DNA from: Schmidtea polychroa
Lineage: Eukaryota
Direction: 5' to 3'
Assembly: GCA_044892525.1 (NCBI GenBank)
Contig: CM097886.1
Coordinates: forward strand, 114,576,001 to 114,640,000
Length of the DNA: 64,000 bases
Position numbers and translations under genes: made by a program. Shown in pieces: positions 3,001 through 46,157 of the stretch (positions are counted from its first letter, which is position 1; every line of letters begins with the position of its first letter). Below the pieces are notes generated by a model. The model made no database searches. It saw only the letters and a list, made by a program, of their open reading frames with translations, and had not been told where the DNA came from.

Positions 3001-3803
3001 ATTTATTCGAAATCCCGAATCAATTACTAGAACGAGGAATAACCTTCACAAATCATAAGGATGAGCAGTTATTAAAAAAGCGAATTGACACATTCGAAAA
3101 ATCAATATTCCAATTCATTACTCAGGTACGAAATAAATATTGGGGAACGGTAAGTGTGTTATACATGATGGACACGATGAACAACATCCGCGAGAATTAC
3201 CTAGATATTATTCAAATACTTACCGCAGAGGAACGAATCAATAATCCAACCGGAATGAAAATGAGAATAAGGCATGGGAAATCAAGAGAACCAAAGTCGC
3301 AAACGAACCATAAAATCGCAAATAAAGTCATCGAAACAAAATCAATGAGTATAGATCAAGGAGCAATAATATGCAAAGCGAAAGAAGTGTTCTTTGAGGA
3401 AATGCTAGAGCTACCAGATGAAGTAATATTATCAGAAATAATAAAAGCCGTACACACATACGCAAGAGATCAAACCACGGGTTTAGATATCGGGAAAATC
3501 AAAACCTTCTTACCTAGAGCATTTACGATGGTAACAAAGGATTCCAGAACACCTCTACAACAAGCAATACTGGTTGCAAAAGAAAATAGAGCAATAACGA
3601 TCGTGAGAATCCTTAGAGATATGGGCGAGGGAACCAACACGAAAAATGAACAAGGCGAAACGGCCATGATGTATGCAGCTATAACGAAAATACACCCAAA
3701 AACACTCCACATACTACATCAATCAGGATTGAGACTAGACGAAAATCAAACGAAGGGAACTCCACATTGGACTGGGCAACCATACAGCCAAACTTGGAAA
3801 TGA
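3..3803 (+). CDS. pol: Gypsy Pol (RT C-terminal part, RNase H, integrase) fused in frame to ankyrin repeats; 5' incomplete
   Basis: MPFGLTNAPASFQR and YIDD (RT); TDAS...TDHQPL (RNase H); HHCC zinc finger (HDGRLGGH...CITC); D,D35E core (SMDVVGP, TDQG, NGMTERFN); GPY motif. Ankyrin consensus follows: GDTPLH, GYTPLMIAA, KNALHHAI, RTPLQQAI, GETAMMYAA. Confidence 0.95.
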   Translation: MPFGLTNAPASFQRCMNFVTHGIKQCMVYIDDLLIYSATFEQHLEDIRNVFIRLRQWKLKLKPSKCDWSKEKVTFLGHIVSAKGKEPDPRNIEKIKTCPAPKTVTQVQEFLGLCGYYRKFIKNYAGIAKPIQELVKKDISFIWGKEQQEAFETLRDKLIEAPILVHPDFKKPFLLATDASGYAAGAILGQLDDEGKERVIGYYSRTFKKHEKNYSVTEREALAIIQAIKHFRYLLWGHEICITTDHQPLVWLGQHKEASSRLMRWAMQLQEYSPFIKFKAGRANANADCMSRFIFPDLVDPEMQRICLMVAEDLDFCQLRKDQQEDAELKQIIDYVKTGKTEVYAKDQKLKEHMDKHRHRYIIEKDWLLIMDGEKRLMCIPENRRKELLTQYHDGRLGGHMSSKKTLARMKQKYFWPTLTEDVTEWVKNCITCATRKNTGSKWKAPLTPMPVPIEPMTMISMDVVGPLPESDKGNVYILVITDFLTKFPEAFAMPDQKAKTIAKILVEEICCRYGTPKQILTDQGTNFMSEIMSEVTNYFKIAKLRTSPYHPQTNGMTERFNGTLIQMLSNYVDRHQRDWDEYINLCLMAYRMSIHASTKMSPFKLMYGRECNMPMDLEYQPPISQYMEIDDYVTKFKERMQEIWETAGLNIKFYQESYKDLHDRKKNVKQHTFQTGDWVMIETPELIPGTTRKLQRNGKGPYEILFVGETNVRVKLVNNPFTRPIYVNVARCKSIPKTATSQPEGRTLTTRSQTYRMNMMQQLAEPITGRLGIQPSEAEKIVREVKIKLPGWAKDRLDFEILGGLLTMIENYANRERTHPLLRVVKSQWPILFTITDHYGDTPLHKLMKVGNNEQILETIEAFHDCKRSTEQENNQGYTPLMIAANRGKTKDIITALLNTGSKITTQDHDRKNALHHAIEGKSTEAFTSLMELLSYEDNREVGNMYDGLLTAIKEKLTTITGVLITWRNPIKNNYMINLNEAFTRGENTLMREAMRGHHLFEIPNQLLERGITFTNHKDEQLLKKRIDTFEKSIFQFITQVRNKYWGTVSVLYMMDTMNNIRENYLDIIQILTAEERINNPTGMKMRIRHGKSREPKSQTNHKIANKVIETKSMSIDQGAIICKAKEVFFEEMLELPDEVILSEIIKAVHTYARDQTTGLDIGKIKTFLPRAFTMVTKDSRTPLQQAILVAKENRAITIVRILRDMGEGTNTKNEQGETAMMYAAITKIHPKTLHILHQSGLRLDENQTKGTPHWTGQPYSQTWK

Positions 3804-5491
3804 TCAGATTTATTTGCAAAAATGCGACAAAAGAAGAAGTTGAAAATATATGCAAAAACACATCTCAATTTCAATGGAATACGGTACGGAAAAATCTAGA
3901 AGCAATGAAATTGTTATTAACATGGAGAGTACCACAAAATAATAAATATGCGATAAATATAAACGAATTTTACGAAAACGGAGAAAACGCGATGGTAAAG
4001 AATACCCTAACTAAAGGGGGGACACCTAAAATTATCTTAATAGTATTAAATAGAGAAGACCTCAAATTCACGCAAAATCAAAACGAGCAACAACGAATAG
4101 GAAAACATCGTCGTATTCAATTGAGAGAATTAGTCAAGGAATGGAATAGAAAGAGACAAGCTGCAACGGGTAGAAAAGAGTTTGAATTCGAAGCAAAGTT
4201 AGCAAGGAACAGAGTGTTAACAGCATATCGCAGATTATTGAACGATATAAATGTCGAGGACGACATTTTAAACGACAGCGGGGGAGATAAACACGATGAC
4301 AATGACGGAAAAGGCCGAAAGGAGGATAAAGGGAAAAGAGAACCGGAAGAGGATAAACCGGAAAACAAGGATTCGGGTACGAGAAGAGAGGGAAACAGCC
4401 CGGGAACCAAGACCAAAGAGGAGGAAAAACCGAATAATGGAAAACAGAGGGTATGCCTACCGTTCACTAACAAAGAAATAGAAACAAATATGATCTTAAT
4501 GATAATCATGCTAACCATGATAGAGTTAGTAACAGCTCATGGAGGGACGAGAACGATAAAAGAAATCAAAGAAGCGGAGAATCAAGATAGCAAAGAGGAA
4601 GAACTAAAACAAGAAAAGAAAAAGCAAGCACAAGAGCAGCAGTGGGATTTAAAGGAAGAATGGGGCCTAAAGGAAAGGTGCATACTAGGAAGATGTATGT
4701 CTAGAGCGTATCAGAGATTAGTACTGATAAATGAGGACACAGAACCAATAACAGAGGTAAGAATACAAGAAGCATACCGAAATCGAGACGGGAAAAGAAT
4801 AACGAACGTAAAGGGAAAAGAGGTGCACCTAGGAAAAGGAGGTGAAGTAGTAATAACGCAACTCCAACCAAGAAAAGAACACAAAGTCTGTATTTCAAGA
4901 TTAGGACCAGGTGAGAGATGCCATCAATATGTGACGCAGCAGCAGCCCCCAAAGGAATACACGGTTTGTATCTGGAGGAACGAATCAAAAAGGGAATGCC
5001 GACGATACCCGGGGAAAAGAGGGAAGAAAAGAAAAAACAACGACGAAAAGGACGAAGGAGGAAAACACAAGAAAACCGGCGAGGAAGCCCAGGACAACTA
5101 CGTTTCAGAAGAAGAGATGGAAAAAATACAAAAGATGGCAAAGGAGGGTATGAACGAGGAAATAGCAAGAATACGAGAGATGATGAAAGGAAATGGCAAA
5201 AGAGGAAACGAGAAAAGTACAGAAGCGATATCAACATTAACAAACAAGGAAAAACCAGAGAGTATAAGCGTGAAGCAGAAGATGTGGATCAGCGGGATAA
5301 TAATAACAGGGGCATTCCTAATCATAACGGGGGGAACAATAAAAATAATTAAAGATAAACGACATCGCGGAGAACTAGAGATGACCCGAATCAGAAATTT
5401 CCAACATCGAGTGAAACGACCAAGTGATATCAAACAAGAACAGTGGGTGGAGGCCTGGAACGCTCAGCGCCCTCCAAAACCCCGTATATAG
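3746..5491 (+). CDS. Probable frameshifted continuation of Pol-ANK: one more ankyrin repeat, charged linker, internal signal-peptide-like segment, Cys/FN3-like ectodomain, TM helix, short tail
   Basis: The frame begins SNEGNSTLDWATIQPNLEMIRF (ankyrin consensus) where ORF1 loses ankyrin similarity; one extra A at 3742-3745 would join the frames. Hydrophobic MILMIIMLTMIELVTAHG at ~4490-4540; motifs ITQLQPRKEHKVCI and VTQQQPPKEYTVCI; TM MWISGIIITGAFLIITGGTIKII at ~5282-5350. Confidence 0.7.
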   Translation, partial: SNEGNSTLDWATIQPNLEMIRFICKNATKEEVENICKNTSQFQWNTVRKNLEAMKLLLTWRVPQNNKYAININEFYENGENAMVKNTLTKGGTPKIILIVLNREDLKFTQNQNEQQRIGKHRRIQLRELVKEWNRKRQAATGRKEFEFEAKLARNRVLTAYRRLLNDINVEDDILNDSGGDKHDDNDGKGRKEDKGKREPEEDKPENKDSGTRREGNSPGTKTKEEEKPNNGKQRVCLPFTNKEIETNMILMIIMLTMIELVTAHGGTRTIKEIKEAENQDSKEEELKQEKKKQAQEQQWDLKEEWGLKERCILGRCMSRAYQRLVLINEDTEPITEVRIQEAYRNRDGKRITNVKGKEVHLGKGGEVVITQLQPRKEHKVCISRLGPGERCHQYVTQQQPPKEYTVCIWRNESKRECRRYPGKRGKKRKNNDEKDEGGKHKKTGEEAQDNYVSEEEMEKIQKMAKEGMNEEIARIREMMKGNGKRGNEKSTEAISTLTNKEKPESISVKQKMWISGIIITGAFLIITGGTIKIIKDKRHRGELEMTRIRNFQHRVKRPSDIKQEQWVEAWNAQRPPKPRI

Positions 5492-5651
5492 AAAGGGATA
5501 TGACTGTATATAATTGTAAAAAGTAAGTATATCTTATGTATATAACAGTACTATATCTTTATATAAGCGCGGTATCAATATTATAAAATAACGGGGATCA
5601 TAAAATGAAATTAAATTTAGATAAGAGTTGAAAAGTGTATATAAATTAAGA

Positions 5652-5960
5652 ATGGAGCAAGGAAGTAACGAAATGAACCACAACACAGTAACCGAAGAAT
5701 TATGGAAGCAACAATGTGCCGTATTAGCACAATTAGTGTCTAATTTGCAAGAACAAGGATTGACGATGCAAAAGAACCTAATCGAGAGTATGAACAGAGG
5801 ATTTAGTTATTTGAAGATAATTGAAGACCAGAGGTTAAAAATCGAACAAATGCAAAGAGAAATAGAGAGGATAACTCAATATAGCCGAAGACAGGAAATC
5901 GAATTGGACAGAATGATGGAGGAAGCAGAACAGACAGAAATAGAAGACTGGTCAGAATGA
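5652..5960 (+). CDS. Element cargo ORF, short coiled-coil protein of unknown function
   Basis: Open frame with heptad-like E/Q/L pattern, same A-rich codon bias as pol, bounded by AT-rich spacers; ATG preceded by AG. Confidence 0.6.
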   Translation: MEQGSNEMNHNTVTEELWKQQCAVLAQLVSNLQEQGLTMQKNLIESMNRGFSYLKIIEDQRLKIEQMQREIERITQYSRRQEIELDRMMEEAEQTEIEDWSE

Positions 5961-6096
5961 CTAATGAGTAGAGAGGAGGGCGGACACGAAGCCGACTCTT
6001 CCGAACCATAAACCAAACCTAGCTTAAAATGTAAATAATTGTAAATAAAATATCGAACCTGTATCGATAAGAACTATATGTATATATAATTATAGA

Positions 6097-7485
6097 ATGG
6101 ATAAACGACAAAGAGAAGAGTTCAGAGAGATTGTCGAACAAGTCCGAAAATCTACAACGATCAGAATACACAAACATGTTATGTGCGGAATATGTGAAAA
6201 GTTGTTAAAGGAACCTCACCAAACCCAATGTGGATGCAGATTATGTAAGGAATGCATCAGTGAAGCAATAAAGAATAGACCACAGTGGTTCCCGGTGTGT
6301 AAAGAGACACTAATATCGAGTTTAGAAGACACTAACGAGGATAAAGCCGCAGTGAAAGACATGTTAAACACCAATCTGGGATGTAAAAATACCCCATGCG
6401 AATGGAAAGGAGTAATATGGAAAGTAGTGCAACATATGGGAGAATGTATGTACAGAATCGGCCAGTGTGAAAGGTGCCATAAAACCATTCGAGCAAGCGA
6501 AGAAAAAGAGCATCAAAGCCAGTGTGAAGAGAGACTAGAAAGATGTAAACATTGTGGAGAAATAGATACGTGGAAAAATCTCACCAGCAAACATCACAAT
6601 GTCCAAGAGGAAAAGGTATGTGCAGAGTTCAGTGGGGAATGCCCGAACGGATGCGAGGAAGGGAGAATAATAAAAATAGCCCAACACCTAAAGGAATGTG
6701 AAAGGAAAAGAATGACATGTGCACTCGGTAAATGGGGCTGTCAGAAACTACTACACCGAGGAGAGTTACCACATCATTTAGTAGAAAATGCTTCAACCCA
6801 CGCAGAAATGTGGTCGACTGCGTTACAAGAAAGTGAAGAGAAAGTAAAACAAATGGAGATAGAGATAACATCGTTGAAAGCGTTAGTCAAAGAACTACTA
6901 GAAGAAAGAGAAGCGTTCGAAGAAGCCCGAGCTAACATAAAGATGCAAATAAATCGTATAAAAATCAGTAATAATCAGGCCAAGGAGCTACATCGGAAAA
7001 TACAGGAAATAAATCTAAATGAGATAACCCCAACAGCACCTTATATATGGAAGATAACGGGAGTGAAAGAAAGAATACGGAAAGCCAAAACTGGGGAAGA
7101 GACAAGAATAACAAGTCCTGCATTCCATTCTTGGAAAAATGGGTACAAGATGAAAATGAGGATATATACCAACGGAGATGGAGCCGGATTGAATACACAT
7201 TTTTCGATATTTTTTCTATTATGTAAAGGGGAACGTGACGAGGTAATAGAATGGCCATTCCAGGCAAAAATCGATATCACAATGATGAATGACCAAAGCA
7301 TCCACGAACAAAGCTTCAAAACAACGGGAACCCAGCTGTGTTACCGGCGACCTACTGATGAGGAAGGAGCAGCATCAGGAGCACCCACGTTCATCTTACA
7401 GCAGAAGGTGGAAGAGATGACAAAAAACGACACAATATATATAAAAATGACAGTGAGAAGGGAAGGGAAGGGTAGAACGGAGTAA
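6097..7485 (+). CDS. traf: Intronless TRAF-family protein (RING, TRAF zinc fingers, coiled coil, MATH) inside the retrotransposon
   Basis: RING CGIC...CGCRLCKEC...FPVC; several C/H zinc fingers; coiled coil; MATH domain YIWKI...SPAF...GYKMKMRIYTNGDG...THFSIFF...EWPF...GAPTFI. 462 aa, uninterrupted. Confidence 0.95.
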   Translation: MDKRQREEFREIVEQVRKSTTIRIHKHVMCGICEKLLKEPHQTQCGCRLCKECISEAIKNRPQWFPVCKETLISSLEDTNEDKAAVKDMLNTNLGCKNTPCEWKGVIWKVVQHMGECMYRIGQCERCHKTIRASEEKEHQSQCEERLERCKHCGEIDTWKNLTSKHHNVQEEKVCAEFSGECPNGCEEGRIIKIAQHLKECERKRMTCALGKWGCQKLLHRGELPHHLVENASTHAEMWSTALQESEEKVKQMEIEITSLKALVKELLEEREAFEEARANIKMQINRIKISNNQAKELHRKIQEINLNEITPTAPYIWKITGVKERIRKAKTGEETRITSPAFHSWKNGYKMKMRIYTNGDGAGLNTHFSIFFLLCKGERDEVIEWPFQAKIDITMMNDQSIHEQSFKTTGTQLCYRRPTDEEGAASGAPTFILQQKVEEMTKNDTIYIKMTVRREGKGRTE

Positions 7486-7677
7486 CCCATCGAATAATGT
7501 TGTATATAATAACCTGTATATATCGGCGTATATAACCAATAAAATATTATATAATAATAGTATGAAAAACCCTAAATACGAAAACCCAAAAATGATGCGA
7601 AAATTTCCGAAGAACCAGTAACTAATGAATAAAATTTTTCCATAATAAAAAGATTAATCTATATCAATGATTTAGAA

Positions 7678-8733
7678 ATGACACAAGAGAGAATAACCGA
7701 AACTACGATAGCCCCAACCAATACCCACAAGACACAAATTCCCCGAGAATATAACGAAAAATGGAACAAAGTAATGTTCCAACTAACTAACCTCACCCGA
7801 AACTACATCAAAGAAGCTAGAGAAGATGAGAACAGTAAATATCAATGGCTAATCCACAATTTAAGAGAGGAAGCAGAAGCATGTAAAAGAGCATCAAAAT
7901 GGGATTCATTAGAAAATACCCGCCAAGAAGCACACAGCCACTACTTAAAGCAGCTAGTGCAGGAAGCGAGAAAGAGGCTCACTGACGAAAACGCAAAACG
8001 CGAAGCGGAAAAGCAAATAGAAGGAAGGAAAATGATGCATTTATTGGCAGAGGCCAGAAAATGGAAAAGACAAAATAGTGAAATGAAAAAAGAGATGAAA
8101 GAATTGCCCATGAGACTCGGATATGAAAGCGAACAGGGCAAATGGGAGGAAAATTTAATAATAAAGGAAGAACTGAAACGGTTGAGAAAGGTCGCCACCC
8201 GAAGCCAAACATGGCAGATGAAGGCCATGGAGTTCGAGCGACATTTGGCAATGAAATGCGACATAAGAGAGCACGAGAATGCCGCAATGGAGGAGATGAT
8301 AACCCAACAAGCAGGACGGGTTTTGGAATTAGTAAATCAGGTCGTAGAGATGAAACGAGACCTCAATGGATTACAGGGATCACTAGAACAAAGAAACATG
8401 GTCCTAGCTGGAAAAAACAAAAAATTAGAAAACGAGAGGAAAATGTATGCCGAAAATATCAAAAACTTGGAAATAGAAATTGAAAAATGGAAGGGCGACG
8501 AGAAAATCAAGGCCCTAGATAGACAAATAGAGATGAAAGACGAAGAGACAAGGTATCTCACCTACCTGCTCGACGAAGAGCTGAATATCACTCGAGCTCT
8601 AAGAGACGAAGTTAATGAATTGAGAGCTCAAATCCCCCAATATTACCTACCTTATGACCCTATTGCGATACAGTTGCATCCAGCGGTCGATAGTGATGAA
8701 GGTTATGTGGGACAGGAGGAAACCTTCGTATAA
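7678..8733 (+). CDS. Element cargo ORF, long coiled-coil protein
   Basis: 351-aa open frame, E/K/R/L-rich heptads, element-type codon bias, TTTAG just before the ATG. Confidence 0.75.
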   Translation: MTQERITETTIAPTNTHKTQIPREYNEKWNKVMFQLTNLTRNYIKEAREDENSKYQWLIHNLREEAEACKRASKWDSLENTRQEAHSHYLKQLVQEARKRLTDENAKREAEKQIEGRKMMHLLAEARKWKRQNSEMKKEMKELPMRLGYESEQGKWEENLIIKEELKRLRKVATRSQTWQMKAMEFERHLAMKCDIREHENAAMEEMITQQAGRVLELVNQVVEMKRDLNGLQGSLEQRNMVLAGKNKKLENERKMYAENIKNLEIEIEKWKGDEKIKALDRQIEMKDEETRYLTYLLDEELNITRALRDEVNELRAQIPQYYLPYDPIAIQLHPAVDSDEGYVGQEETFV

Positions 8734-8904
8734 AGGTGAATAAAAAGATAAAAACAAAAAAAATCGGGACGTATATCCCAAACAAAAAAAAATTAAAGTA
8801 TTGTAAAAGTATTCAAGGGATTGTAACCCAAACTATTAAATTTTATATAAATGTATAAGTATAAGTCGTACTATAGCGCACCATTAACTGTACATATTAT
8901 AGAT

Positions 8905-9594
8905 ATGAAAATCGAGGAAATGATAGAAATCACGAGTGACGTGGAAGAAGGAGAAATTGTAACAGAAACAACAGAAACACAAACGCTAGAAGCAGAGTTG
9001 CGAGCAGAGAAGTGTGAAAACGAGAGACTGGTAAACAAATACATAGAAGATCGAAAAATAATAAAGATACTAAAGAAAGAATGCAGAGTGCTAGGGGAAG
9101 TAAAAAGAGAAACAGAAGAGGAAAACGAATGGCTGCAAGAACAACGAAAACGAGGGAGAAATTGGGAGAAGATTGCGGAAGAATTATGGCAAGAAAGGGC
9201 CAGTAGAAAGGCAGACGAAGTGATTAGCGATTATTGGAAAACCGAGGCACGGAAACACCAAGAAAGTTTGAAGGAGTTACAACTCCAACTGCACCAAAAA
9301 CAAAAGGAATGCGAGATAATGAAAAGAATGAACAGCAAATACCACGAAATCGACGACGGAGAAGACGAGGAAAGGGGAAATGATTTCTTACAAATACTAA
9401 ACCATAAAAACCTGGAAAGAGCAACGCAGGAAATAAAAGTGTTAAAAGGGAAAATAAAGTTCCTAGAACAACAGATAGACGAAAGAGATAAGCAACTAGA
9501 AGTACTGCCAGAATTGAGAAAACGGGTAATAAAAGCGGAAACGGAAGTGATGAGAGCGTCTCAGAAAGCCCGTAAAAAGAAATCCCGACCATAA
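8905..9594 (+). CDS. Element cargo ORF, coiled-coil protein with basic C-terminus
   Basis: Open frame (track start 8851; ATG 8905 after TATAG preferred), E/K-rich heptads, ends RKKKSRP. Confidence 0.7.
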   Translation: MKIEEMIEITSDVEEGEIVTETTETQTLEAELRAEKCENERLVNKYIEDRKIIKILKKECRVLGEVKRETEEENEWLQEQRKRGRNWEKIAEELWQERASRKADEVISDYWKTEARKHQESLKELQLQLHQKQKECEIMKRMNSKYHEIDDGEDEERGNDFLQILNHKNLERATQEIKVLKGKIKFLEQQIDERDKQLEVLPELRKRVIKAETEVMRASQKARKKKSRP

Positions 9595-9649
9595 ATTAAA
9601 AAGGGATAATTGATGTAAATAAATGTATATAAAATGTTCGCATATTAGT

Positions 9650-10303
9650 ATGTGGCCGGAAGCAACCCTGATGACCCTAATAATGATAACAATAAACGGA
9701 ATGCCCATGCGGCAGTCAGCCCCAAACCCCTGGGAGAACCCCGAGAAACAGCAAAGCCGATTAATCAAACTGAAAAATGAAAGAAAACCCTCCAACAATA
9801 TCCCGAAACAATGCTGGAACAAAGCCGTCTGGCAAAAGACCCAAAGACAACTGAATCTGCAATCTCAAAGAATCGAACAACTTGAAACCCTCCTACATGA
9901 ACAAACCACCCAACAGTCTCTGAAAGAAACCCTCGTAAAGAAAGAAATAAAAGAAAGTCAAGCCCTATTCTATGTTACCATTAGTGAAACCATCCTCATC
10001 TGCGCGCTAATCATCTGGAAGACATATGATATCTATCGAGCATGGAACAGAACCCAACCACTATCCGAGAGACCCAAAAGAAAGAACCTACGATTCCGAA
10101 ACGTACATAAACAAGCAGTACATTGTCAACAACCGGACCCACTCGACCAAATACAACAAAATCTGTCTTCTAATCAAATACCCGTTACAATCCAGCTCTC
10201 CACAGTAACAACTTCAACCAACCCTTCAAGCCAGAATCCCAGAGATCCCCAAAAGGTAGTTAACCGAAACAGTAGTAACATGTCGAACATTGAAATCCCG
10301 TGA
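9650..10303 (+). CDS. Element cargo ORF, predicted type I membrane protein (signal peptide, coiled-coil ectodomain, TM, S/T/P/Q tail)
   Basis: MWPEATLMTLIMITING N-terminus; TM ALFYVTISETILICALIIW; low-complexity tail. Confidence 0.65.
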   Translation: MWPEATLMTLIMITINGMPMRQSAPNPWENPEKQQSRLIKLKNERKPSNNIPKQCWNKAVWQKTQRQLNLQSQRIEQLETLLHEQTTQQSLKETLVKKEIKESQALFYVTISETILICALIIWKTYDIYRAWNRTQPLSERPKRKNLRFRNVHKQAVHCQQPDPLDQIQQNLSSNQIPVTIQLSTVTTSTNPSSQNPRDPQKVVNRNSSNMSNIEIP

Positions 10304-10854
10304 CAGTAATTTGATGTATATAATTCCGGTCACCCTAAGTGGCCACTGCTTGCTTATATTTGTCTTATTATCTGTTTAATTAAAGTATTAGTCAGTTAAT
10401 TTGTTTTTATGTCTGTACGTATTTTGATTGTGGAAGTTTTGTGTTATAACAACAGAGGTATGATTAGAATGTATGTCATTATGCGAATTGCGGGACGCAA
10501 TTTTGATGGGTCCCCGAGTGATTTGTTGGGCTGAATCGAAGGGTAGCTGGGAAATTAGGTCGAATTTAACTAAAGTAAAAATAAGAAATAAAATAAATAG
10601 ATTGACGAATAAAATAGAATAGAACATAAGAAAAACAATAATTAGAAATAAGAATTAAAACAAAAAAAAATATGAAAATAAGAAAAATTAAAATAGGACA
10701 ATAGAATGACAGAAAATAACGCAAAATATAATAAATAATAAGGAAATTAAGGAAAATAAATAAAAACATAATTTTAATAAAGAAAATAAGAAGAAATAAC
10801 TCTAAAACAAGGAAAATAAATTAAATTAATAAAATTAAGCGGTACTCAATTCTG

Positions 10855-10920
10855 ATTGGTCCGCGCAAACAAAAAATTAATATATAAGCAGGCATTAAAA
10901 TCATAATAATTACAGTTAAT
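10855..10920 (+). promoter_or_regulatory. LTR promoter: inverted CCAAT (ATTGG 10855-10859), TATA (TATATAAG 10881-10888), Inr-like CAGTT at ~10913
   Basis: ATTGG and TATATAAG occur in the same order in the LTRs at 24823-24860 (-) and 33575-33600 (-). Confidence 0.75.
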
Positions 10921-10936
10921 CTAACCACCTCAATAG

Positions 10937-10983
10937 GTAAGTAAAGTTTAAAATAATCACAGTTAATCTAACCACCTCAATAG
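10937..10983 (+). other. Predicted 47-nt LTR mini-intron (GTAAGT...CTAAC...ATAG) whose last 25 nt duplicate exon 1
   Basis: Direct repeat ACAGTTAATCTAACCACCTCAATAG at 10912-10936 and 10959-10983; the first copy is followed by GTAAGT. Confidence 0.7.
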
Positions 10984-13215
10984 ATCCATTCTACGACGAA
11001 ACCGCAATTAAACAATCAATCCACAGCAACTCACGAGGACTATTCCGGAATCCAAGAAATTTCAGCTGAATCTAGATAATTTCGAACATTTATTACTTCG
11101 ACACAGTACCCCTTTTCGACTCAGCCTATACCTCTATTAAACACTCGGTAAGGATCTTTTGATTTCATAATTTGAATTTTAAAGTAATAGTTATGCATAT
11201 GATTTAATTATAATTTTAATTTAAAGAACTTGTTTTCTTTTCGTTTGATTTCGAATACTTGGTGTAATTTAACGATTTAGTATTTAACAATAAATGATTT
11301 GCTATGAATGATTGATTTCTAGGAATTATTGACTTTTATGAACTGTTTTAATGAGTTATTATTTAATGCCATTCAAATTTTCGAGAAACGTGGCGTTGAT
11401 ATACTCTAGTGTCATGGTGTGAGGTGCCTTCGGGAGCTCCACCGGTGGGCCTAGGGTATTTCAATCACGCAGCTGATTCGGGCCGTAATGTGGGGGCTTC
11501 CTCACGGGTCCGTCGCTGAAGGTGCGACTAAATCCTATAGGAAAATGTTGCCAGAAAATTGGTAGTCGTATAGCGATGGAAAATAGAGATGTAGGAAGAA
11601 ACGTTCAGAGAGTTTTTATGTATTCGCGCAGTGATTGAGGGTGTCACACTATCGTCTCAAGATATCGTTTCTACTAAGCCCAAATTTCCTCTATCGCTCT
11701 AAAGCTCTATGTAGGTTGCTCATCGAGAGTCGTTCAAATGCTATAGGTGACATATCTTCGATGCTCGTATGTTTCACTCGAAATTTATACCTACTATGTT
11801 TTATGGCCTTCCGTGTTATTATTTTCCTCGTCTACGTGTTCTCTCAAAGATGAAGCTGCAGGGGATTACAGAAAATAAGTAGTCTCGGATGAGCGTTAGA
11901 ATTCCATGAACAAGTTGTCTCGCATAAAATTTTGAATTACGTAAAACGGGTTACTTCAACTATTTTTGAATTGTATAAAATGATTTACTTCAATTGATTT
12001 TAGAATTATATAAAGGGATTAACTTCCACAAATTTTTCTAATTACATAAACCGGTTAGTGCCAAATAATCTCAAGAGTAAAACGAAATCAAATCGAGTCA
12101 AAAAATATATTTTTTTTTACAAACCAATCTAACATGATAATCCTTACCTAGTAAATATAAATTACCCGTGTTTCATGGAGTTGATAATCCAGCGAGGATA
12201 GGTAGGAAATCTCCAAAATATCGGGAACGGATCAATAAACCGCATTTGAGGAGTTGAGAAGTTCCCCCTGGGGGGCAAATTATATCCAACTCTTGCGATA
12301 CCGAGAATCATAATTTTTCCAGCATTTCCGTGAGAATTAGTATGACATCATCATGAGCAAGGAAATGTGAGCATCTGTGCAGTGGGTTGATCGAGATAGT
12401 AGCCAGAGAACATGCCAGCATGTAAACAGTTGAGGGCATCAGTTAGTCATTAGGAGTGGAATTAAGTATGAGAAATAAAAACTTGCATACGTCACCCGTT
12501 TTCAGACACACTACAGTAGCTAATCACGGTGTGTAGATTCACACCGACTTGTACTCATAACAAACCAGACCGGACGTGTCAGCTGGAATTTTTGGGTTAT
12601 CAAATTAAATCACTCGCAGTCATTAGATTCCCACTGGTCGGAACTAATAGCCAACTGTCAGACTGATTTTGTCTACTTAGTAGGATTAATTTAGTTATTA
12701 TCTCATGTTGAATAATTTGTCGCCTATCATAAATAAATAATTAAAAATTTTTTTTTAATGTCTTCCCGTTCATCATAAATGAACTAATTAAGAATAATTT
12801 ATGGATTTCTATTCACCCTAAATAATTAATCTAAAATTAATCGACCTACGTACAGGATACATTCATCGAAACGATTTGTTAGGAAAAGTCGGCAATGTAA
12901 TTCAACTCTCTTCAAACGTTAATTACTAACTTCAAGCGATTTAGATAACCGTAGTTTCCTCGACCTAGAATTCCTCTCACCAGTAGTAATACCTCTCCTT
13001 ACTTGTGCAAAATCGTGCTTGACTGATTTATTTTCTTATAATTAATGACCCAAAGGGAACGAGGACCCATAGCGCAGTTGAATTTCTTTGGCTGATACAC
13101 CCATTCTTGTCTATGAAACCAACTATGATCAGTAAAATATAAATGTGACCAGACGACGACCTTCTAATTGATTTGATTTGTTGTTCATTTCCATCTTTTC
13201 TTGCAGTCACCCAAG

Positions 13216-14064
13216 ATGTTACCCAATTCCAAGACCATTCTCAGACCTTGTTTCTCTTGTTCAGACAAGAATTCAATCATCAAGGATCTGCAGGCCCAAA
13301 TCGGAAAGTACAAGAGAAAAATAGACGAGTTAGAGGGGACATGGTTTAGTCCTACCCAGATGAAAGAGGCTCAGAAGAAGCTGCACCGCAGCGAGCACTG
13401 TCGAGATGCGCTAATTTCCGAAAGTCGGGCGCAGAGAAGCCTAATAAAGGAGCAGTCGGAGGCGCTGCACAAGTTATACGTCCAAGCAGCAACCACTAGG
13501 AGAATCGCGAAGATCCCAATTAATGAAGCCAGTAATCTTTTTCCAGCGCACCACGAGATCTCGGGCGGGCCTTCATCTCCACCTGGGAAGTCCTGCCATG
13601 GGTGCGTGGAGACCGAGCTCTCTCCCAGTGGTCCAGACGTTGTATTCACCGGAACTAATAAAGTGCAGCCAAACACCGCATCGTCCTCAATCGTGCAAAC
13701 CCCAACAGCTTCAAAACCTAAACGTCGGCAACTGTCGCGCGCCGAACGAAAACGAAAGCAACGAGAGCGGGCTTCCATCAAACGGATTCTACCATCAACC
13801 GTCACCCCAGTCGACGGCAACAGCAATCCAATAGTAGTCGATCTAACGACCGGAATCTCAGGGCGAGTCATCTCCGCCGCCGGGGTAACATGGGAAGAAA
13901 ACGCCGCCGAATTCTTTGATTTAAACGAGTTACTCGCCGACTCGGAGTGGGAAAAATGGGAATTGCTCCGTAAACTGGCCTCATCTTCTAGAGAGACCTG
14001 GACATCTTCTGACATCATTGTTTACCCTTGTGTTTTCCCTATTCTTAGGAATTTTGGTATATAA
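13216..14064 (+). CDS. LTR-encoded 282-aa protein (CxxC + coiled coil, Arg/Lys-rich motif, acidic-aromatic C-terminus), predicted spliced
   Basis: Intact ORF. Polypyrimidine-CAG acceptor at 13204-13206, donor GGTAAG at 11147-11152, AATAAA at 14096-14101; all are conserved in the solo LTR. Homologues at 21762-22505 and 30791-31646. Confidence 0.8.
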   Translation: MLPNSKTILRPCFSCSDKNSIIKDLQAQIGKYKRKIDELEGTWFSPTQMKEAQKKLHRSEHCRDALISESRAQRSLIKEQSEALHKLYVQAATTRRIAKIPINEASNLFPAHHEISGGPSSPPGKSCHGCVETELSPSGPDVVFTGTNKVQPNTASSSIVQTPTASKPKRRQLSRAERKRKQRERASIKRILPSTVTPVDGNSNPIVVDLTTGISGRVISAAGVTWEENAAEFFDLNELLADSEWEKWELLRKLASSSRETWTSSDIIVYPCVFPILRNFGI

Positions 14065-14520
14065 GTGTTCAATGTACTTGTATAATAATTCTGACAATAA
14101 ACCATTCTCGTCTATATATGTGTTTTTGTTTATCTTAAAATAGTCGATCTGAAATTGGTGAATAACATTGAGAGTCGTAGAAAATGAGGAGCATTAGTCA
14201 GTTGGCAACCCCAGCTAGGAACCTTGCGATGGGGTGATGGAATGATTAGACGTAAGTCCTTCTATCGGCAGTCAGGGTTGGGAAGTCGAGGCCTCAGTAA
14301 GGAGTAGTCCGAAGGAGCTGGCTCACCTGCTTACTGGCGTCTCGCCGGCATAGCACAGTTCCAACGTGAAGCAATTCACGGGTGCTATGTTGGAATGTAG
14401 GTTATGTGCGGGTCCTGCTTGGCGATGACAAAACGAAGGACGAGCGAAATCGATGTGGGCATTCATCCTCTAGACTGAAAGCTGCACTAAAAGGGGTCAT
14501 CCGAGTAGCTACCCGCAACA

Positions 14521-17500
14521 GTATGGACTCGATAAACATAATTTAATATCAAGTTTCGTTGTGAATTCTCTCATCAATCCTATTTCAAACGCATTTCCAC
14601 AATCAACTCTTACCTCATTTAGGCATCCAAATTTTAAAATCCATTTTTCTAAAATCGTTTTCTTTATTGTTTCTTCATCTTGTCTTGTTATAGCTATCAA
14701 GTATTGATACTTTCTTTACTAGTCTATTATACCCAATATCTACTTCTTACGTCATTTTGTTTTTTGCATTGGTCCACATATATCCACGAATATAATTTCG
14801 AACATTTCGTTTGATTCTAGTTTTTTAGTGGTTCCTTCGTTGTAATTGTTATAGCCTTGGTTTTTTGACAAATCTCACAACTTCGAATAGTTTTCTGAAT
14901 CTGACTTCACAGGACTTTCCCAATATACCTATCATTCGTATAATCAGCTATCTTTTTCGACCCTAGCATGACACAATAGTATTTCCTTTATGATTTCTTG
15001 TATCTCGTTTTCTGGTATCATCGTTTTCTTTCGTGCTTCTTCTTTCAAGTTTCCTGGTTGATTGGTGCTTCTCCCTTCTTCTCTGAATGAGTCTAGTAAT
15101 CTAGTTTTAATCTTTCTTTTCTTAGCTTCTTTGTGGGCCATTTGACATTGAACACACGCTTCACATTTAGGTCTGGACACCATGTCTGCATTTTGGTGAT
15201 TAACACCTTTTCTATATTCAGCGATTATATCCAAACTGCTCAAATAATTGATCCAGGTTTGGAATTGTGAAGTATTTGGCTTCTTGGTTGTCATCATAAA
15301 CGTGATCGCCTTGTGGTCTGTCCTTAGCGTGAATCTTCTTCCGTAGAGATAGTGCTTAAAATGAATACAAAAATAATATACCACCAATTGTTCCTTCATT
15401 GTAATTCAATATCCTTTTTCATGGTTCGTCATCGAGTGTGATCCATACGCAATTACTCTCTCCTTTTCATCTTTATTTATTTGTGAAAGCTCTGCTCCAA
15501 TGTTATCAAAACTGGCATCAGTATCTAAAATGAACTCCTTTCTCAGATCCGAAAAGCATAAGATCGGTGCCGTTGTGAGTGCTAACTTCAATCCCTCGAA
15601 TACGTTATTCGTTCCTTTTGTCCATTCCACTCTTGTGTTACTCGGACCGATACATAATTGTTCTGACATCCTTGCTTTCTTTTCATACTCACTGATGGAT
15701 CTTCTATAATAATTGCAAATGCTTAGAAAACTTCGATGTTTCTTTACGCAACTTGGCTTCCCAAAGTTTTGTATAGCCTGAATCTTAGAAGGATCGGTCT
15801 GTACTCCTTTTTTGCTGATTATGTGTTCTAAGAATCTGATTTCTTTCTGTATTATTTGACACTTTTCTGAATTAATCTTTAGTCCTGCTTCTTCTATGGC
15901 TTATAATACTTTACTGAGTATTGTATAATGTTTTTCTTTATTGCTCGAATAAATCAGAATGTCATCCAAATACACCATTGCTCCATTTATTTTGCCTATT
16001 ACCTTTGTCATCATTTCCTGGAAAGTACCTGGTGCTGCAGCAATTCCGAACTGCATTCTATTGAAACAGTATTGCTCTTTCTTTGTTGAGAATGCTGTTT
16101 TCTCTTGCGATTCTTCGTCTAACTCCACTTGATAATATGCATTACCAAGATCGATTGAGCTAAAATAAACGGACACTCTGAACAAATCTAACATCTCGTC
16201 TATGTTTGGCATTGGGAATGCCTGCCTCTCTGTTACTGCGTTCAGCTGCCCGAAATCCAAGCATAGCCTAATATCTTTTTTATCTTTATTTCACACGCAG
16301 ATTAACAGCGTGTTCTATGGGGAGTTGCATTTCCGTATAATCCGTTTTCGTACAAATTTTGTAATGCTTCTTCAATTTTTGTTTCCAAATTCAATGGTTG
16401 ACTATATGGTTTTATGTTTATTGATTCACCTCTTGTTATTATCTTATGTTTTACTAAATGCGTTCGACCCACATCCCATTTATCAGCCATAAACACGTTT
16501 CCACTGTTCGTTATTATTTCCTTTAATTTACTATCCTCATTAATCTTAAAATGTGCCAACGTTCGCTTCAACCTTTCTCCATCCTTTATTTGTCTGATGA
16601 CTTTTGGTTCAATGTTACAAATATAGTTCTTGTCTTTTTCATTTGATTCGATATCTTTCCTTTTTACAAGCCAATATCCAAATGTTTCTTGTAATCCTAT
16701 TCCTCCAATCATCTCTGGGGTCACTTTCTCCGCCACAATGAATCTAACTTCCCTGGAAATATCTCCGATAGACACTTTAACCTTTGTTATTTCAATAGTC
16801 GCTATCGTACTTTCGTTTGCACATCGTAACTTATTGTCGCTTCTCATCAACTGTTGTCCTCGTAATTTGTTAAAACAGTTCACACTCATTACGTTTATTC
16901 GTGCTCAGGTATCCAATAAACAGTCGAAAATTTCTCCATTCATCATAACTGTTACACAGGGTCTTCCCGTAGCTTGTTTTACACTATTTCTACCTACCCG
17001 TTTCAATTGTTCCAGTTCTTTCCACTTCCTCGTCAAACTTTTCTCTCCTTAGGAACCTGTATACTTTCTCACTTCCCTTTCCTACATTCTCCCACTTTTC
17101 TACCCCTTGAGGATATTCCATCCACTTTTCTGTTAGTATATGGCTCCAACCAACTCCTCTACTGGCGGAGCCCTGTTGTTTTGGTACGTCCTACTAAAAT
17201 TATCTTCATTTGTCTCAACGCACGATTCCATTTCCCCTTCTTCTTCGATTCCTTTAATCCGGCTGTATCTGTTTCCTGTCGGTCTTTGTTTCTCTATCGT
17301 TTTCTTGTAACTCGACTTTGAATAACATTCTTCAGATATATGACCATTTTTGTTGAATCTTTTACACCGTATTTCTTGACATAACCTTCTTATATGACCT
17401 TTGCCACAACCAAAACATTTTGGCACTTTTTTATCTGGACAATTCCTACTTATATGTCCGCTTCTGTGACACGTCCAGCACTCTATCTTATTTCTTACTG

Positions 17501-18175
17501 GACAGTCTATTTTAGTGTGGCCTGTTTTGTGGCATAGCCAGCACTCTGGTTCTTCTCGTCGCCTTCCTTCTTCTCTTTCATCTCTTTGCTTGTACTGTCC
17601 TCTTCTCTGTGGATCCTGATAGACCACTCTTGCATAACTTTTCATAGCGTTTATCTGATCTCTCTGTTTGTCAACTTTATTCATCATAATTAATGTTTCC
17701 TTTATTTCCTCTGTGCTTTTTATTTTTACCAATATTACTTCTTTCTCAACTTCTTTATTCTCAAACAACTTGTTGGCAAGGTCCTCCATTTTTTTAAATA
17801 TGTTTCAATCTCTTCGCCTCTTCTTTTATAATTCAATAAACTTTCCATATCATTTATTACATCTCTTTCTTAATCAAATGCCATTCGTAACTTGACTTGA
17901 AATCCCTCTGCTCTTTTAACTGTCTTAGCATATTTCTCCAATAGATCCTCGTCGATCATGCATGCAGTCAATCTTTTCTGTTCTTTTTTATTGATGCCTT
18001 TAGCATCGAAATAAATCTGGCATCTTCTAATGAATTTTTCTAAACTTTCACCTTGCCAGAACACCTTTGGCAATAATCTTTCAGTAATCACGTCAGTGTT
18101 TACCGCTGCCACCATATTATAATTCTCATCCGTTACAACATTAACATCTGGTTCCAAATCACTAAATAACTCCAT
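14521..18175 (-). mobile_element. Decayed conventional Ty3/gypsy element (gag with CCHC knuckles, protease, RT, RNase H, integrase), interrupted in IN by the giant element
   Basis: CWLCHKTGH and CWTCHRSGH knuckles; LLDT*A protease site; YLDD; DTDASF; fragmented by stops and frameshifts. Confidence 0.9.
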
Positions 18176-18616
18176 AAATTTTATTCAATAAATTTTAGAC
18201 TCAAAAACTTGTCTTTCTTATTTTTGTTATTTAAAGAAATTTCCATTTTCCTTTTTTCAATAAAAATATTTTTTTAAAATTTAACAAACTTTCTAATTAA
18301 ATCTCTAAGAATCTATCAACTTCCTCATAACTTGTTTATAGTAATTGATAAAATTCATTTTTATAATTAAAACAGAAATTTTATAAAATATACATAACTG
18401 ATATCTAAAATAGAGTATAAATTAAAATAATTCGATTTTGTTAATATGTATCAATAATATAAACTATCACATGTGGGATTGTTGCTCATTTTTACTATTA
18501 ATTCTTCAAAAATACTAATTTAATAGGTTAAATTTCATTATTTTAGCATAATAATAATTAATCTAAATTTTTATGCATTTCAGCAGGTTGAAAAAAATTT
18601 CCCAGTCTAAATATCA

Positions 18617-19216
18617 ATGGCATATTCCAGATCTTTTGGAAACGTTTGGACACTTTTAAAAGAAAACGCATTTCAACAAGTCGACATATCTGATGATATT
18701 TTGTGCTTAATTTGTAAGAAAATTATGGTCAATTCACAAAATGGACCATGTGGTTGCAGATACTGTTTGGAATGCATAACAAATCATCTAAATGAAAACA
18801 ATCATCAATGCCCTGGCACTACAGAACTTTGTGAAAATGAACAATTAACTCTTGATAATTTGCAGACTGATAATGCTATTAATGTGAAAATTTCAAGAAC
18901 TGTCGTAAATTGTCCATTTCAAAATTGCCATTATCAAAATGAACTTAAACTTATTGGAGACCACATAATGGCGTGTAATTTCCGTGAAATTAATTGCCCA
19001 CTTACCGAAATCGGATGTAAAAAAATGAATTTGACCAGTGATTATATGCTAAATCATTTTAAATCGGAAATCGTTTCTCATTCAACATTATTTTTGGAAT
19101 GTTTCGATAATATGAAAAATGAAATTGAATCTCAATCAAAAATTCTAAAAGAAATGAAAGAAGAAAACCAATTAATGAATGAGAAAATTTTAGCACTTGA
19201 ACAAGCAAATCAATCG
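18617..19216 (+). CDS. traf: Host TRAF gene, coding exon 1 (RING, zinc finger, start of coiled coil)
   Basis: CLIC...CGCRYCLEC...CPG RING; CPFQNC and CPLTEIGC fingers; phase-0 GTAAAT donor at 19217; upstream TTTCAGCAG acceptor near 18588. Confidence 0.85.
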
Positions 19217-19675
19217 GTAAATTTTAATTAGACACATTTTCATTCGTTAAAATTTTAATAATTTTATTTTGTAAATGCTAACTAATTTTTGAGTGATCTA
19301 TTTAAAGCATGTAAAAATTGGTTTAAACGAGATATTTAAAATTTATATAATTAAATAATTATTCAATAAAAATAATTTTAAATAAAAATTTATAATTTTA
19401 TTTAAACAAACAATTGTTCCATAATATTTGTGTGATATTGGAATTTTTTTGATTTATTTTAAAATTTAAATAAGGGAAAAATGCAATTTTAATCAAATGC
19501 AATATATTACATTTATATTTACTATTTTTTTAAATATTCATATTTAATTATATTTATTTACATTTAATTTGTAAGATTTTTAATTTCCTTATTTTAAATA
19601 TGTAATTATTTGAGTTTCTAGTTTTTAATTGAGAATGTTTTGTGGGCTTCTTCTTACATATAGCTTTTAACTCTG

Positions 19676-21198: not shown

Positions 21199-24100
21199 TG
21201 TTGGCGGGTAGCTACTCGGATGACCTTCTTTAGTACCGCTTTTAGTCTAGAGGATGAATGCCCCCATCAATTACACTTGTCTTTATCCCGGTCATCGCTG
21301 AGCAGGGCCCGTACATAACCTATACTCCAACATAGCACCCGTGAATCGCTTCACGTTGGAACTGTGCTATGTCGGCGAGACGCCAGTAAGCAGGTGAGCC
21401 ATCTCCTTCGGACTACTCCTTACTGAGGCCTCGACTTCCTAACCCTGACTGCCGATAGAAGGACTTACGTCTTTTATCCCGTCACCTATCGCCATGTTTC
21501 TAACTGGGATTGCCAATTGACTAATGCTCCTATTTTTTGCGACTCTCAATGCTATTTACCAATTTCGAATCAACTGTCTTAAAATAAACACAAAAAAAAA
21601 ACGTATGCAGACAAAAATGGTTTATTGTGAGAATTTTTATACACATATATTACAAACTTATACCACCCAATTTACAAGAACAAGGAAACACAAAGATAGA
21701 AAATGTTATCAGTAGATGTTCAAGTCCCTCTAGAGGATGAAGCCATTTTACGGGGAAGTTCTCATTTTTCCCACTCCGAGTCGGCGAGTAACTCGTTTAA
21801 ATCGAAGAATTCGGCGGCATTTTCTTCCCATGACACCCCGGTAGCGGAGATGACTCGCCCTGCGATTCCGGTTGTTAGATCGACGACTGCTGAATTACTG
21901 CTGCCCTCGACTGGGGTGGCGATTGATGGTAAAATCTGTTTGACGGAAGCCCGCTCGCGTTGCTTTCGTTTTCGTTCGGCGCGTGACAATTGCCGACGTT
22001 TAGGTTTTGAAGCGGTCGGTATTTGCACTCTTGAGGAAGATGCGGTGCTTGACGGTACCTTACTAGTTCCGGTGAATACGACGTCTTGACTTCTGGGAGA
22101 GAGCTCGGTCTCCACGCACCCATGGCAGGACTTTCCGACTGGAGATGAAGACCCGCCAGAGATATCATGATGTGCTGGGAAAAGATTACTGGCTTCATTA
22201 ATTGGGATCTTCGCGATCTTCCTTGTAGTTGCTGCCTGGACGTATGATTTGTGTAGCGCCTCCGACTGCTCTTTTATTAGGCTCCTCTGCGCCCGACTCT
22301 CCGAAATTAACGCGTCTCGACAGTGCTCGCTTCGGTGCAGCTTCTTCTGAGCCTCTTTCATCTGGGTGGGACTAAACCGTGTCCCCTCTAACTCATCTAT
22401 TTTTCTTTTATACTTCCCGATTTGGGCCTGGAGATCTTTGATGATCGAATTCTTGTCGGAGCAAGAAAAACAAGGTCTGAGAATGGTTGTGGAATTGGGC
22501 AACATTTTGAGTGACTGTGAAGAAAAATGAAAAATGAAGATAGATTAAATCAACGAGAGTGTCGCCATCTGATCACACTCATACTCTACTGATCATAGAC
22601 AAAATTATGGGTTTACCGGTCAACAAGATTCTACTGCACGATGGATCCTCATACCTTTTGGGTCTTTAATTATAAGAAGATAAATCGATCAAGCCAGATT
22701 TCGCACAAGGAAAGGGAGACATTACCACTAGTGAGAGAAATTCTCGGTCGATGAAAATTATTATTTATTTAATCCGCTTGAAGTCACTAATTCACGTTTG
22801 CAGAGAATCGGGTGAAATTGTTGATTTTTCCCCCCAAATGAGTGATTTCGATGCGTGTATCATGTACCGGGGTCGATTAAGTACTTACGGTTAAGGGGGG
22901 GTCCATAATTTCCTTTAAATAGTTCGTTTATGATGAACGGAAAGTTATTTAATTTTTCGATTATTTATTTGTGATAACGGAAAATTGTATCGATGTGAGA
23001 AAGTAGCAGAGCAAATCCTACTAAGTAGATAAGCAAAATATCAGCCTGATGGTTGACTATCCATCCCGAGCGATGAAATCTAATGCCGGTCAGTGGTTTA
23101 ATTAGATAACGGAAAACTCCATCTGACACGTTCGGCCTGATTTTCTATGGGTAAAGGTTAGTGTAACTTTACACACTGCGATTGGCTGCTATAGTGTGTT
23201 TGAACATGTGTGACGCATGCGAGTTGCGATTTCACACACTTATCTCTACTCGTAACTACTAATGGAGGTTCTTCAATGTTTGCATGCTGGCATATTCTCT
23301 GGTTACTATCTACTGCATAATTGCTCACAATTCCCCTGCACATGCTGATGGCCTAATAATTCTCACGGAAACATTGGAAGAAATTACGATTCTCTATGTC
23401 GTAAATGTTGGATATAATTTGCTCCAAGGGTGGATTTCTTTTTAACCTCTCAAATGCGATTTATCGATCTGTTCCTGAAATTCTGGAGATTTTCTACCTA
23501 TCCCCGCTGGATTTCCAACTTCATGAAATACGGGAATTTTACATTTAAGTAACAAGACTCATCAGGCTAACTTAAAAAAAAATATATTTTTCTTGGCTCG
23601 ACTTAGTTGCATTTTTCATTTCAAATTATTTGATGCCAATCATTTATGTAATTACGAAAATTAGTTGAAGTAAATATTTTTATATAATTCTAAAAAATTA
23701 ATTGAAGTAAATTATTTTATGTAATTCAAAATTTTATTTGGAACAAACTCGTTTTATGAAATTCTAATAATTATCTGAAATAAATCATTTTACGTGGTTC
23801 TACAATCCATTCGTAAACAGTCATTTTGAATAATCCTAATAATTATCTGAAGCAATCTACTTTGAGCTTCCTTGCAACTATGTCTTTAAGAGAACTTTTA
23901 GATGAAAGAAATAACAGTTCAAAAGGTCATAGGCCGAAAATTTGTAGGAGTAGGTTCCGAGCGCAAAGCATGAACATCGAAGATATATCACATATAGCCC
24001 CACTAATGTCTGAACGATTGTTTGACACACAACTTACATCGATGATAGAGAAAATTTGGCTTAGTAGAAACGATATCTGGAGACGATGGTGTGACGCCCT

Positions 24101-25184
24101 CAATCACTGCGCGAATACCTAAGAATCCTCCGATTCATTTATTACATATCTTTGTTTTCAATCACTATATGACTATCAATTTTCTGCCACAATTTGCCTA
24201 TAGATTTTGGTCGCACCTTCAGCGATTGGACCCGTGAAGAAGCCCTCACATTTCGGCCCAATCTAGCTGCGTGATTGAAATACCCTATGTCCACCGGTGG
24301 AGCTCCCGAAGGCACCTCACACCATGACATAGAGTATCTCAACGCCACGTTCCTCAAAAATTTAATTAACATAATAATAACTCATAAAGATAATTCATCA
24401 AAGAAAAATCAATAATTCCTAGAAAGTAAATCATTTATTATTAAATAACCAGATCATTAAATTAAATAACATGCTTGAAATCAAACGAAAAGAAAAGGTA
24501 AGATCTTTAAATTTAAATTATAATTAGATTATACCATTACTTATAAATTCAAAATAAGAAATCCAAAAATCCTTACCGAGTGTTTCAAATAGGCTGAGTC
24601 GAAAAGTATTAAGTAGAATTAATTAATACTAGAATCGAATATAGATTTAGATGAAGTTTCTTGAGTCTTGGAATAGTCCTTGTGATGATCCTGTAAGTCA
24701 GTGTCTGTTGCTGTGAATCGCTAGTTCTATAGTAGTTGTTGGATTAACGGTCACGGTAATTAAAATACACTTACCTATAGTAGTTGTTGGATTAACGGTA
24801 ATTATAATGATTTTAATGTCTGCTTATATATTAGTTTTCTATTTACGCGGACCAATCAGCATTGAATACCGCCTTATTTTATTAATTTAATTTATTTTCC
24901 TTGTTTTTGGGTTATTTCTTCCTATTTTCTTTATTAAAATTATGTTTTTATTTATTTTCCTTAATTTCCTTATTATCTAATATATTTTACGTTATTTTTC
25001 GTCATTCTATTGTCCTATTTTAATTTTTCTTATTTTTATATTTTTTGTTTTAATTCCTATTTTCTAATTATTGTTTTTCTTATGTTCTATTCTATTTTGT
25101 TCGTAAATTTGTTTATTTTATTTCTTTATTTTACTTTAGTACATTTGACCTAATCTCCCAGCTACCCTTCGGTTCAGCCCAACA
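21199..25184 (-). repeat. Solo LTR of the giant gypsy family, 4-bp TSD CTAT
   Basis: TGTTG/CAACA ends; CTAT at 21195-21198 and 25185-25188; collinear with 10524-14520. Confidence 0.95.
21762..22505 (-). pseudogene. Copy of the LTR-encoded ORF, truncated near its C-terminus by TGG>TGA stops
   Basis: Near-identical protein to 13216-14064 up to EWEK; similarity continues past the stop. Confidence 0.85.
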
Positions 25185-46150: not shown

Positions 46151-46157
46151 ATAATTA

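Follow-up and report, generated by a model that had tools for sequence, protein, structure and literature searches.

Near the promoter of giant planarian LTR retrotransposons lies a predicted mini-intron whose 3' end is an exact copy of the preceding exon, and the two copies change together across 38 families of the genome. It is likely, judged from the DNA, that cDNA made from a spliced 5' end lands on the intron tail in the unspliced 3' R and thereby rewrites branch point and acceptor. We also consider it likely that the intron outlasts retrotransposition because first-strand transfer uses its tail as the acceptor, a single 25-nt sequence being start site, exon, branch point, acceptor and R repeat at once, and that the junction archives cap sites and alternative splicing. 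The feature is widespread in a known class of elements, and its upkeep, for which we found no described mechanism, appears strongly supported at the DNA level. The analysis started from a window of 64,000 nucleotides of Schmidtea polychroa DNA (GCA_044892525.1, contig CM097886.1, positions 114,576,001 to 114,640,000), to which all coordinates refer. The terms intron, exon 1 and TSS are labels read from sequence, not from RNA.

Three such repeat pairs are found in the window. At site 1 (+ strand), unit 1 (10912–10936), the predicted exon 1, extends from the predicted start A to the AG preceding the donor. Unit 2 (10959–10983) is its exact 25-nt duplicate and forms the tail of a GT-AG mini-intron of 47 nt (10937–10983) predicted from sequence signals; it bears the predicted branch point and acceptor and is the predicted landing site of the strong-stop cDNA. 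Site 2 (24727–24799, − strand) contains an exact 25-nt repeat at an interval of 48 nt (unit 1, 24799–24775; intron, 24774–24727; unit 2, 24751–24727). A G at 24752 immediately precedes unit 2, where the promoter copy has a T. Site 3 (33477–33553, − strand) is composed of unit 1 (33553–33530), an intron (33529–33477) and unit 2 (33500–33477), with a 22-nt exact repeat whose copies start at 33553 and 33500, an interval of 53 nt. The unit is in truth 24 nt long; the exact match covers only 22 nt because copy 1 ends in a private GG instead of the AG present in its relatives L065, L068 and L071. The original prediction had reported units of 22–25 nt in three LTRs. Its coordinates were reproduced as exact repeats with GT...AG intervals of 47, 48 and 53 nt; the unit length holds for sites 1 and 2 and needs correction from 22 to 24 nt at site 3, and the LTR assignment holds for site 1 (a 3' LTR) and site 2 (a solo LTR), whereas site 3 lies in a decayed LTR-like copy whose ends can no longer be recognised. 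Within positions 1–40000, three exact repeats of at least 22 nt within 150 nt were observed, against none in five locally shuffled copies, and the three unit pairs account for three of the six non-simple exact repeats of at least 15 nt within 150 nt in the whole window.

The 3' LTR that carries site 1 (10524–14520, + strand; 3997 bp, TG...CA) is 99.7% identical to its upstream partner, and site 1 lies 388 nt inside it. The complete element measures 28.5 kb, its 5' LTR lying upstream of the window, 24.6 kb from the 3' LTR. It is flanked by a 4-bp target duplication and has a PBS-like site just past the 5' LTR, which we take to be of the tRNA-Pro type. Pfam matches occur in the order gag zinc knuckle, Monjiviricetes fusion protein, protease, reverse transcriptase (RT), RNase H, integrase, ankyrin and RING/MATH ORF. 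This is a Ty3/Gypsy LTR retrotransposon, and it is Burro-like, being matched by description rather than by sequence to Burro/GYPSM1, the giant gypsy-like LTR elements of planarians (PMC6431247). Both have a size of about 30 kb, 4-kb LTRs, gag zinc knuckles, ankyrin repeats, a MATH/TRAF ORF and a fusion-glycoprotein homology between gag and protease, whereas the portion of the Burro description on which we draw contains no LTR intron (PMC6431247), in contrast to the intron predicted here. The gag-pol region of the site-1 copy is broken across several ORFs, and at least five accessory ORFs lie between pol and the 3' LTR (3650–10303, + strand), one of them RING/MATH (TRAF-like) and the others without a Pfam match. 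Two further TRAF-like ORFs are located outside this element (18611–19231 and 53066–53656, both + strand).

The solo LTR with site 2 (21199–25184, − strand) is 78% identical to the site-1 LTR and has a 4-bp target duplication. Site 3 comes after an env-like ORF related to the site-1 element and before a homologue of the ORF found inside the LTR, and because of these neighbours we regard it as LTR-like but decayed; its family is more distant. The intra-LTR ORF is kept in all three families (13216–14064, + strand; 22544–21762, − strand; about 31709–31298, − strand) and its product is basic, with an N-terminal CxxC and a coiled coil; a search with it gave no scored relative. A search of other species with two element-specific ORFs returned no scored relative, and all counts given here refer to one genome.

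At site 1 a CCAAT-like box in reverse orientation and a TATA box occupy 10853–10888 (+ strand), preceded by a very A-rich U3 in which AATAAA recurs many times before the TATA box is reached (10570–10840). The CCAAT-TATA pattern had 889 matches in the genome and none in the control; with a donor 40–62 nt further on, there were 584 genomic matches versus eight in the control. Of the first 100 of the 889 promoter sites, 73 had two units (one of them three), 23 had a single unit, among them L169, reassigned by hand, and four were disrupted (L098, L117, L123, L160). The number of unit mismatches in 20 nt was bimodal among the 178 loci scored, 22 loci without the motif being left out: 0–2 mismatches in 137 loci, 7–11 in 39 and values between in only two. 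The conserved internal end that precedes 3' LTRs at the position of the polypurine tract (10505–10523, + strand) identified 213 genomic junctions, with no match in the control. The first 50 of these showed two units in 46 cases and one unit in three, one being unscorable. Taken together with eight known pairs, they comprised 41 elements with two units in both LTRs, two with one unit in both and two with a single-unit 5' LTR and an intact 3' LTR, while for 13 of the 58 the partner was not found or a score was lacking. LTR ends joined to a PBS-like site number 638 genome-wide, as compared with the 213 3' junctions of the type used here; the surplus points to further families with another internal end and the same primer site. 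Two LTRs, L182 and L072, possess three units and two introns, which need either an unspliced 5' end or DNA slippage.

Covariation of the units was analysed with 136 two-unit loci, which reduced to 94 distinct cores in 38 families; the site-3 family and L180 were excluded. Unit identity was 0.99 within an LTR and 0.73 between the 38 families. On the 59 ungapped edges of a spanning tree (93 edges, the 34 gapped ones being dropped), 105 substitutions were common to both units, while five and six, respectively, affected one unit only. The young element L356/L357 illustrates this, a private G>A being present in both units of both LTRs. The original prediction held that the copies match within each LTR and differ between LTRs, and had proposed covariation as a check; both are borne out across the 38 families. 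The arrangement is that of a tandem duplication, with the donor in copy 1 and the acceptor in copy 2, but the later divergence that would follow a one-time duplication is not seen.

The 3' edge of the identity coincides with predicted splice signals. Throughout positions −22 to −1 the units agree in 91–94 of the 94 cores, as against 5/94 at +5, and shared changes extend to −3 without fall-off. The predicted introns are 44–54 nt long, with a GTAAG donor in 83/94 cores and a YTNAY motif with its A at −17/−18 in 67/94. As our boundary caller rewarded AG and GT, the counts of these two dinucleotides are partly built in, while GTAAG, the branch motif and the length range are independent of it. The sequence features of a U2-type intron are thus present (GT donor with GTRAG, branch motif and AG acceptor) and conserved while the remainder diverges. 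Since identity ends at the AG of a GT-AG intron, the 3' edge has every appearance of a splice junction. Exon 2 begins with GTA in 21/94 cores, often where the intron lacks a donor 4 nt on, and this is only partly explained. A 4-nt shift of the donor would account for the GTAA that opens exon 2 when GT or GC follows in the intron; this reading was rejected because it fails for L168 and the families with GTA-pyrimidine. Sequencing read runs X1 and X3 covered promoter and introns of 10845–11700 alike, as DNA would; runs X5 and X6, which we guess to be RNA, had no coverage over unit 2. No splice joint was recorded, and the runs are uninformative on splicing either way. Short reads are ambiguous here, since an RNA that begins at unit 2 has the same sequence as a spliced 5' end, and RT may slip between the repeats in libraries.

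The 5' edge has a different character. The original prediction had placed the start of the unit about 30 nt past the TATA box, and the edge indeed falls on a conserved A at TATA spacing, 31 nt from the first T of the box in 70/90 cores, which we read as the predicted start site. The base preceding it is a pyrimidine in all 90 promoter copies and a G in 18/90 intron copies; weighted by family, a G stands there in the intron copies of 11.5 out of 37 families, against a background of 1.8. Within 36 near-identical pairs, positions −1 to −4 showed 37 differences on the intron side versus two on the promoter side. The first intron-side mismatch was a G in 33/94 cores (16/45 in a partly overlapping set), and in the youngest family the junction varied mainly in the length of a T-run. 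Both the minority share of G at the edge and this T-run variation count against the model. In HIV-1, a G directly upstream of the start site arises from cap copying at minus-strand transfer at approximately 5% per cycle, according to the portion of the report consulted (PMC12172438). The marks of such a transfer, namely a G excess and errors upstream of the copied 5' end that are the same in both LTRs, are found at unit 2 and not at unit 1, and the 5' edge of unit 2 looks like a first-strand-transfer junction. In some copies the promoter-side sequence continues further into the intron copy, one such base being a derived allele (L053 as compared with L048/L051), which indicates that copying proceeds from unit 1 to unit 2. 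Introns of the L034, L044, L199 and L204 type contain, in mid-intron, shifted relics of earlier unit-2 starts, a layered out-of-register overwriting.

When these changes arise can be read from complete elements. In the youngest family the junction state was common to both LTRs in 28/28 pairs, with five other differences in all. Sibling insertions, in contrast, differed at the junction in 66/78 and 92/105 comparisons at approximately 1% and 3% divergence elsewhere. Junctions concordant within elements and different between siblings imply that the variants were made during retrotransposition and not by later genomic conversion.

Intronless LTRs, for which the original prediction had proposed a search, do occur and include insertions with both LTRs intronless: among young insertions, 4/17 in one sub-lineage and 0/15 in the other. 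No spreading intronless lineage was seen, 18 of 23 single-unit LTRs being no further from a two-unit LTR than from another single-unit one, and the four young intronless insertions are not mutual nearest neighbours, with one tie. Loss in 4/32 young insertions, set against persistence in 38 families, suggests selection for the intron or for its regain. In L043/L035 and L152/L153, the latter otherwise differing at 3/1495 positions, the 5' LTR is intronless and the 3' LTR intact, from which it follows that the intron can also be lost by another route, either plus-strand slippage or later deletion. With only two discordant cases among 45 complete pairs, the numbers are too few for a 5' bias of loss.

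Further traces resemble the products of splicing. Between relatives, stretches of 10, 15, 15, 31 and 52 nt that run from the junction to an AG further on have been lost, and there are also AG/AGAG steps; duplications in L195 and L130 begin just past an AG within the unit, and the presence of GTAA differs in four pairs. Such AG-bounded and GTAA indels are the traces that would be expected from alternative acceptors and donors copied into unit 2. These cases were chosen by eye without a null, and the deletions ending in AG also have 2–3 nt of microhomology; L159/L132 does not fit, and L194, L158, L198 and L174/L179 are ambiguous. In mosaic LTRs the switch lies at the acceptor AG (L204 compared with L220). 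In the two young sub-lineages, U3, exon 1, intron and unit 2 are 98–100% alike, and similarity drops to about 50–75% right past the acceptor AG, with the exception of one conserved block. The switch is as expected for transfer between different RNAs followed by rewriting up to the junction.

The mechanism that we propose runs as follows. Transcription would start at unit 1, and the mini-intron would be spliced out of the 5' end of the genomic RNA and mostly be kept in the 3' copy of R. Strong-stop cDNA would then end in exon 1, sometimes with a copied cap in addition, pair with unit 2 and be extended through the remaining intron, unit 1 and U3. Each new insertion would receive the intron intact, with branch point and acceptor newly copied from exon 1. 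Rewriting of this kind would keep the pair identical, concentrate changes at the 5' edge of unit 2 and fix alternative splice events in DNA. If the 3' copy were also spliced, or if the cDNA paired with unit 1, both LTRs would become intronless. The donor half of the intron would be inherited from the RNA 3' end, like U3, and a fully intronless element could not rebuild its intron by itself. The original prediction had the intron rebuilt in each cycle: at the DNA level, a pair kept identical and a junction rewritten at insertion agree with this, while the rewriting concerns only the last ~25 nt and not the whole intron. The weakest step is the escape of the 3' copy from splicing of a ~50-nt intron, for which cap-dependent splicing or early 3'-end cleavage are our guesses.

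A second conserved donor-like site is present at 11148–11153 (+ strand), GTAAG being found 120–199 nt into exon 2 in 117/168 LTRs. No precise GT-AG deletion from this donor was detected on 133 tree edges, where most long gaps were misaligned parts of diverged LTRs. As it is never precisely lost, packaged RNA must presumably keep that segment, being spliced at one site and not at the next, a demand that weighs against the model. A weak candidate poly(A) signal (11289–11294, + strand) is an AATAAA located 90–190 nt past donor 2 in 19/24 families, as compared with 11/24 for the opposite-strand word. About 450–550 nt into exon 2 there is a GC-rich block (11405–11535, + strand; approximately 24325–24200, − strand) whose conservation across families is far above its surroundings. 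It has no Rfam match, and an Rfam search of 10400–14700 gave a single match at chance level.

Could the pairs be maintained without splicing? Direct-repeat deletion by RT is established, and RT engaged in strong-stop synthesis might slip off unit 2 onto unit 1, or a cDNA might land out of register and the resulting triple contract; the short cDNA would then land on unit 2. Such slippage predicts a cap-G edge and a timing no different from those of splicing, and the three-unit LTRs L182 and L072 exist. A random switch point should, however, convert the 3' part of the unit less, whereas identity and shared changes stay level as far as −3, and slippage gives no reason for GTAAG in 83/94 cores, the branch motif in 67/94, the 44–54-nt range or indels that start or end at AG. 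We therefore hold it unlikely. A source of short cDNA could also be intronless siblings, which in mixed particles would donate strong-stop cDNA to unit 2 of an intron-bearing RNA. Full-length intronless insertions do exist (the 4/17 of one sub-lineage) and mosaic LTRs indicate transfer between different RNAs, but junctions are equally variable in the sub-lineage with 0/15 intronless insertions, and the private change in both units of L356/L357 would need an intronless twin of the same lineage. This makes it a very improbable account of upkeep, although it may be a way in which a lost intron is regained.

The layout is also that of intron gain by tandem duplication as described, in the part consulted, in PMC3443670. 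An old duplication of an AG-GT segment could have made the intron, genomic gene conversion or unequal exchange keeping the copies alike. The GTA at the start of exon 2 (21/94 cores) may be a relic of it, and discordant pairs and triples demonstrate that DNA-level events take place. Conversion in the genome is hard to reconcile with junction variants that are the same in both LTRs of 28/28 elements and different between insertions, and with a hotspot and G excess confined to one side; as an explanation of the whole pattern it is very improbable, and tandem duplication may account for the origin but not for the upkeep of the intron. Least probable of all, by a small margin, is that transcription also initiates at unit 2 and leaves the cap mark there without splicing. 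Unit 2 does have the same start motif as unit 1, and the G excess would be accounted for, but unit 1 would then belong to U3 and should drift, as opposed to the 105 shared and 11 single changes observed, and the spacing of the TATA box suits unit 1. Renewal of the intron tail by a spliced strong-stop cDNA is the reading that we prefer.

Introns are expected to be stripped by passage through RNA. No natural LTR intron with an exon copy was found in the literature searched, which lay mostly outside subscription journals and excluded supplements; within that range, the statement of the original prediction that it knew no described precedent stands. The following comparisons draw on portions of the cited sources. 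With HIV-1 strand transfer (PMC12172438) these LTRs share the G directly upstream of the start site and misalignments at the junction, and in fission-yeast retrotransposons breakpoints lie near U3-R (10.1101/2022.12.06.519325). Mosaic LTRs are among the features common to those two systems and the LTRs studied here. In both systems the mark is at the true U3-R border, whereas here it lies 44–54 nt downstream, on the second copy, and the promoter-side copy is clean. Introns gained when a genomic AGGT segment is duplicated in tandem (PMC3443670) likewise have the donor in copy 1 and the acceptor in copy 2, and splicing restores one copy; that gain is a one-time event after which the copies drift, while here they have stayed identical in 38 families, with an edge made anew at insertion.

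Penelope-like elements (PMC8557442) also keep a spliceosomal intron by the start site. Theirs is located in the 5'-UTR, in a pseudo-LTR, and belongs to another element class: the site-1 element has integrase, RNase H and true LTRs instead of a PLE-type RT and a pseudo-LTR. In the part of that report on which we draw, intron retention is described without a mechanism and without an exon copy at the intron end (PMC8557442), and the LTR case would offer a concrete route made from ordinary parts. Engineered split-intron retroviral vectors (PMC3182074) similarly move a splice signal through the LTR by reverse transcription and have an intron after the cycle, but they are synthetic and one-way, built to stop repackaging, whereas the process proposed here would be natural and cyclic, with the acceptor side being copied. 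The Ty1 lariat model (reviewed in PMC5399748) also ties splicing chemistry to the first strand transfer, but it concerns a disputed 5'-to-3' branch of the whole RNA, without intron or internal repeat. Our model is testable: it predicts, to the base, where the cap lies, whether each RNA end is spliced and where the cDNA ends. If it is correct, LTR junctions would preserve in DNA which start sites were used, along with cap copying and alternative splicing.

Other repeats and mobile elements are present in the window. Decayed gypsy-type elements that encode RT and RNase H occur at two more places, 14947–18184 and 57851–61065 (both − strand). An ORF at 45079–46164 (− strand) has a YVDD and a C-terminal YIG motif and no Pfam match; it is presumably Penelope-like, and a DDE transposase ORF (46302–47354) adjoins it. 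An inverted pair of about 200 nt with 83% identity is formed by 40541–40737 and 44774–44968, and a direct pair of about 1 kb with 82% identity by 42759–43763 and 49498–50518.
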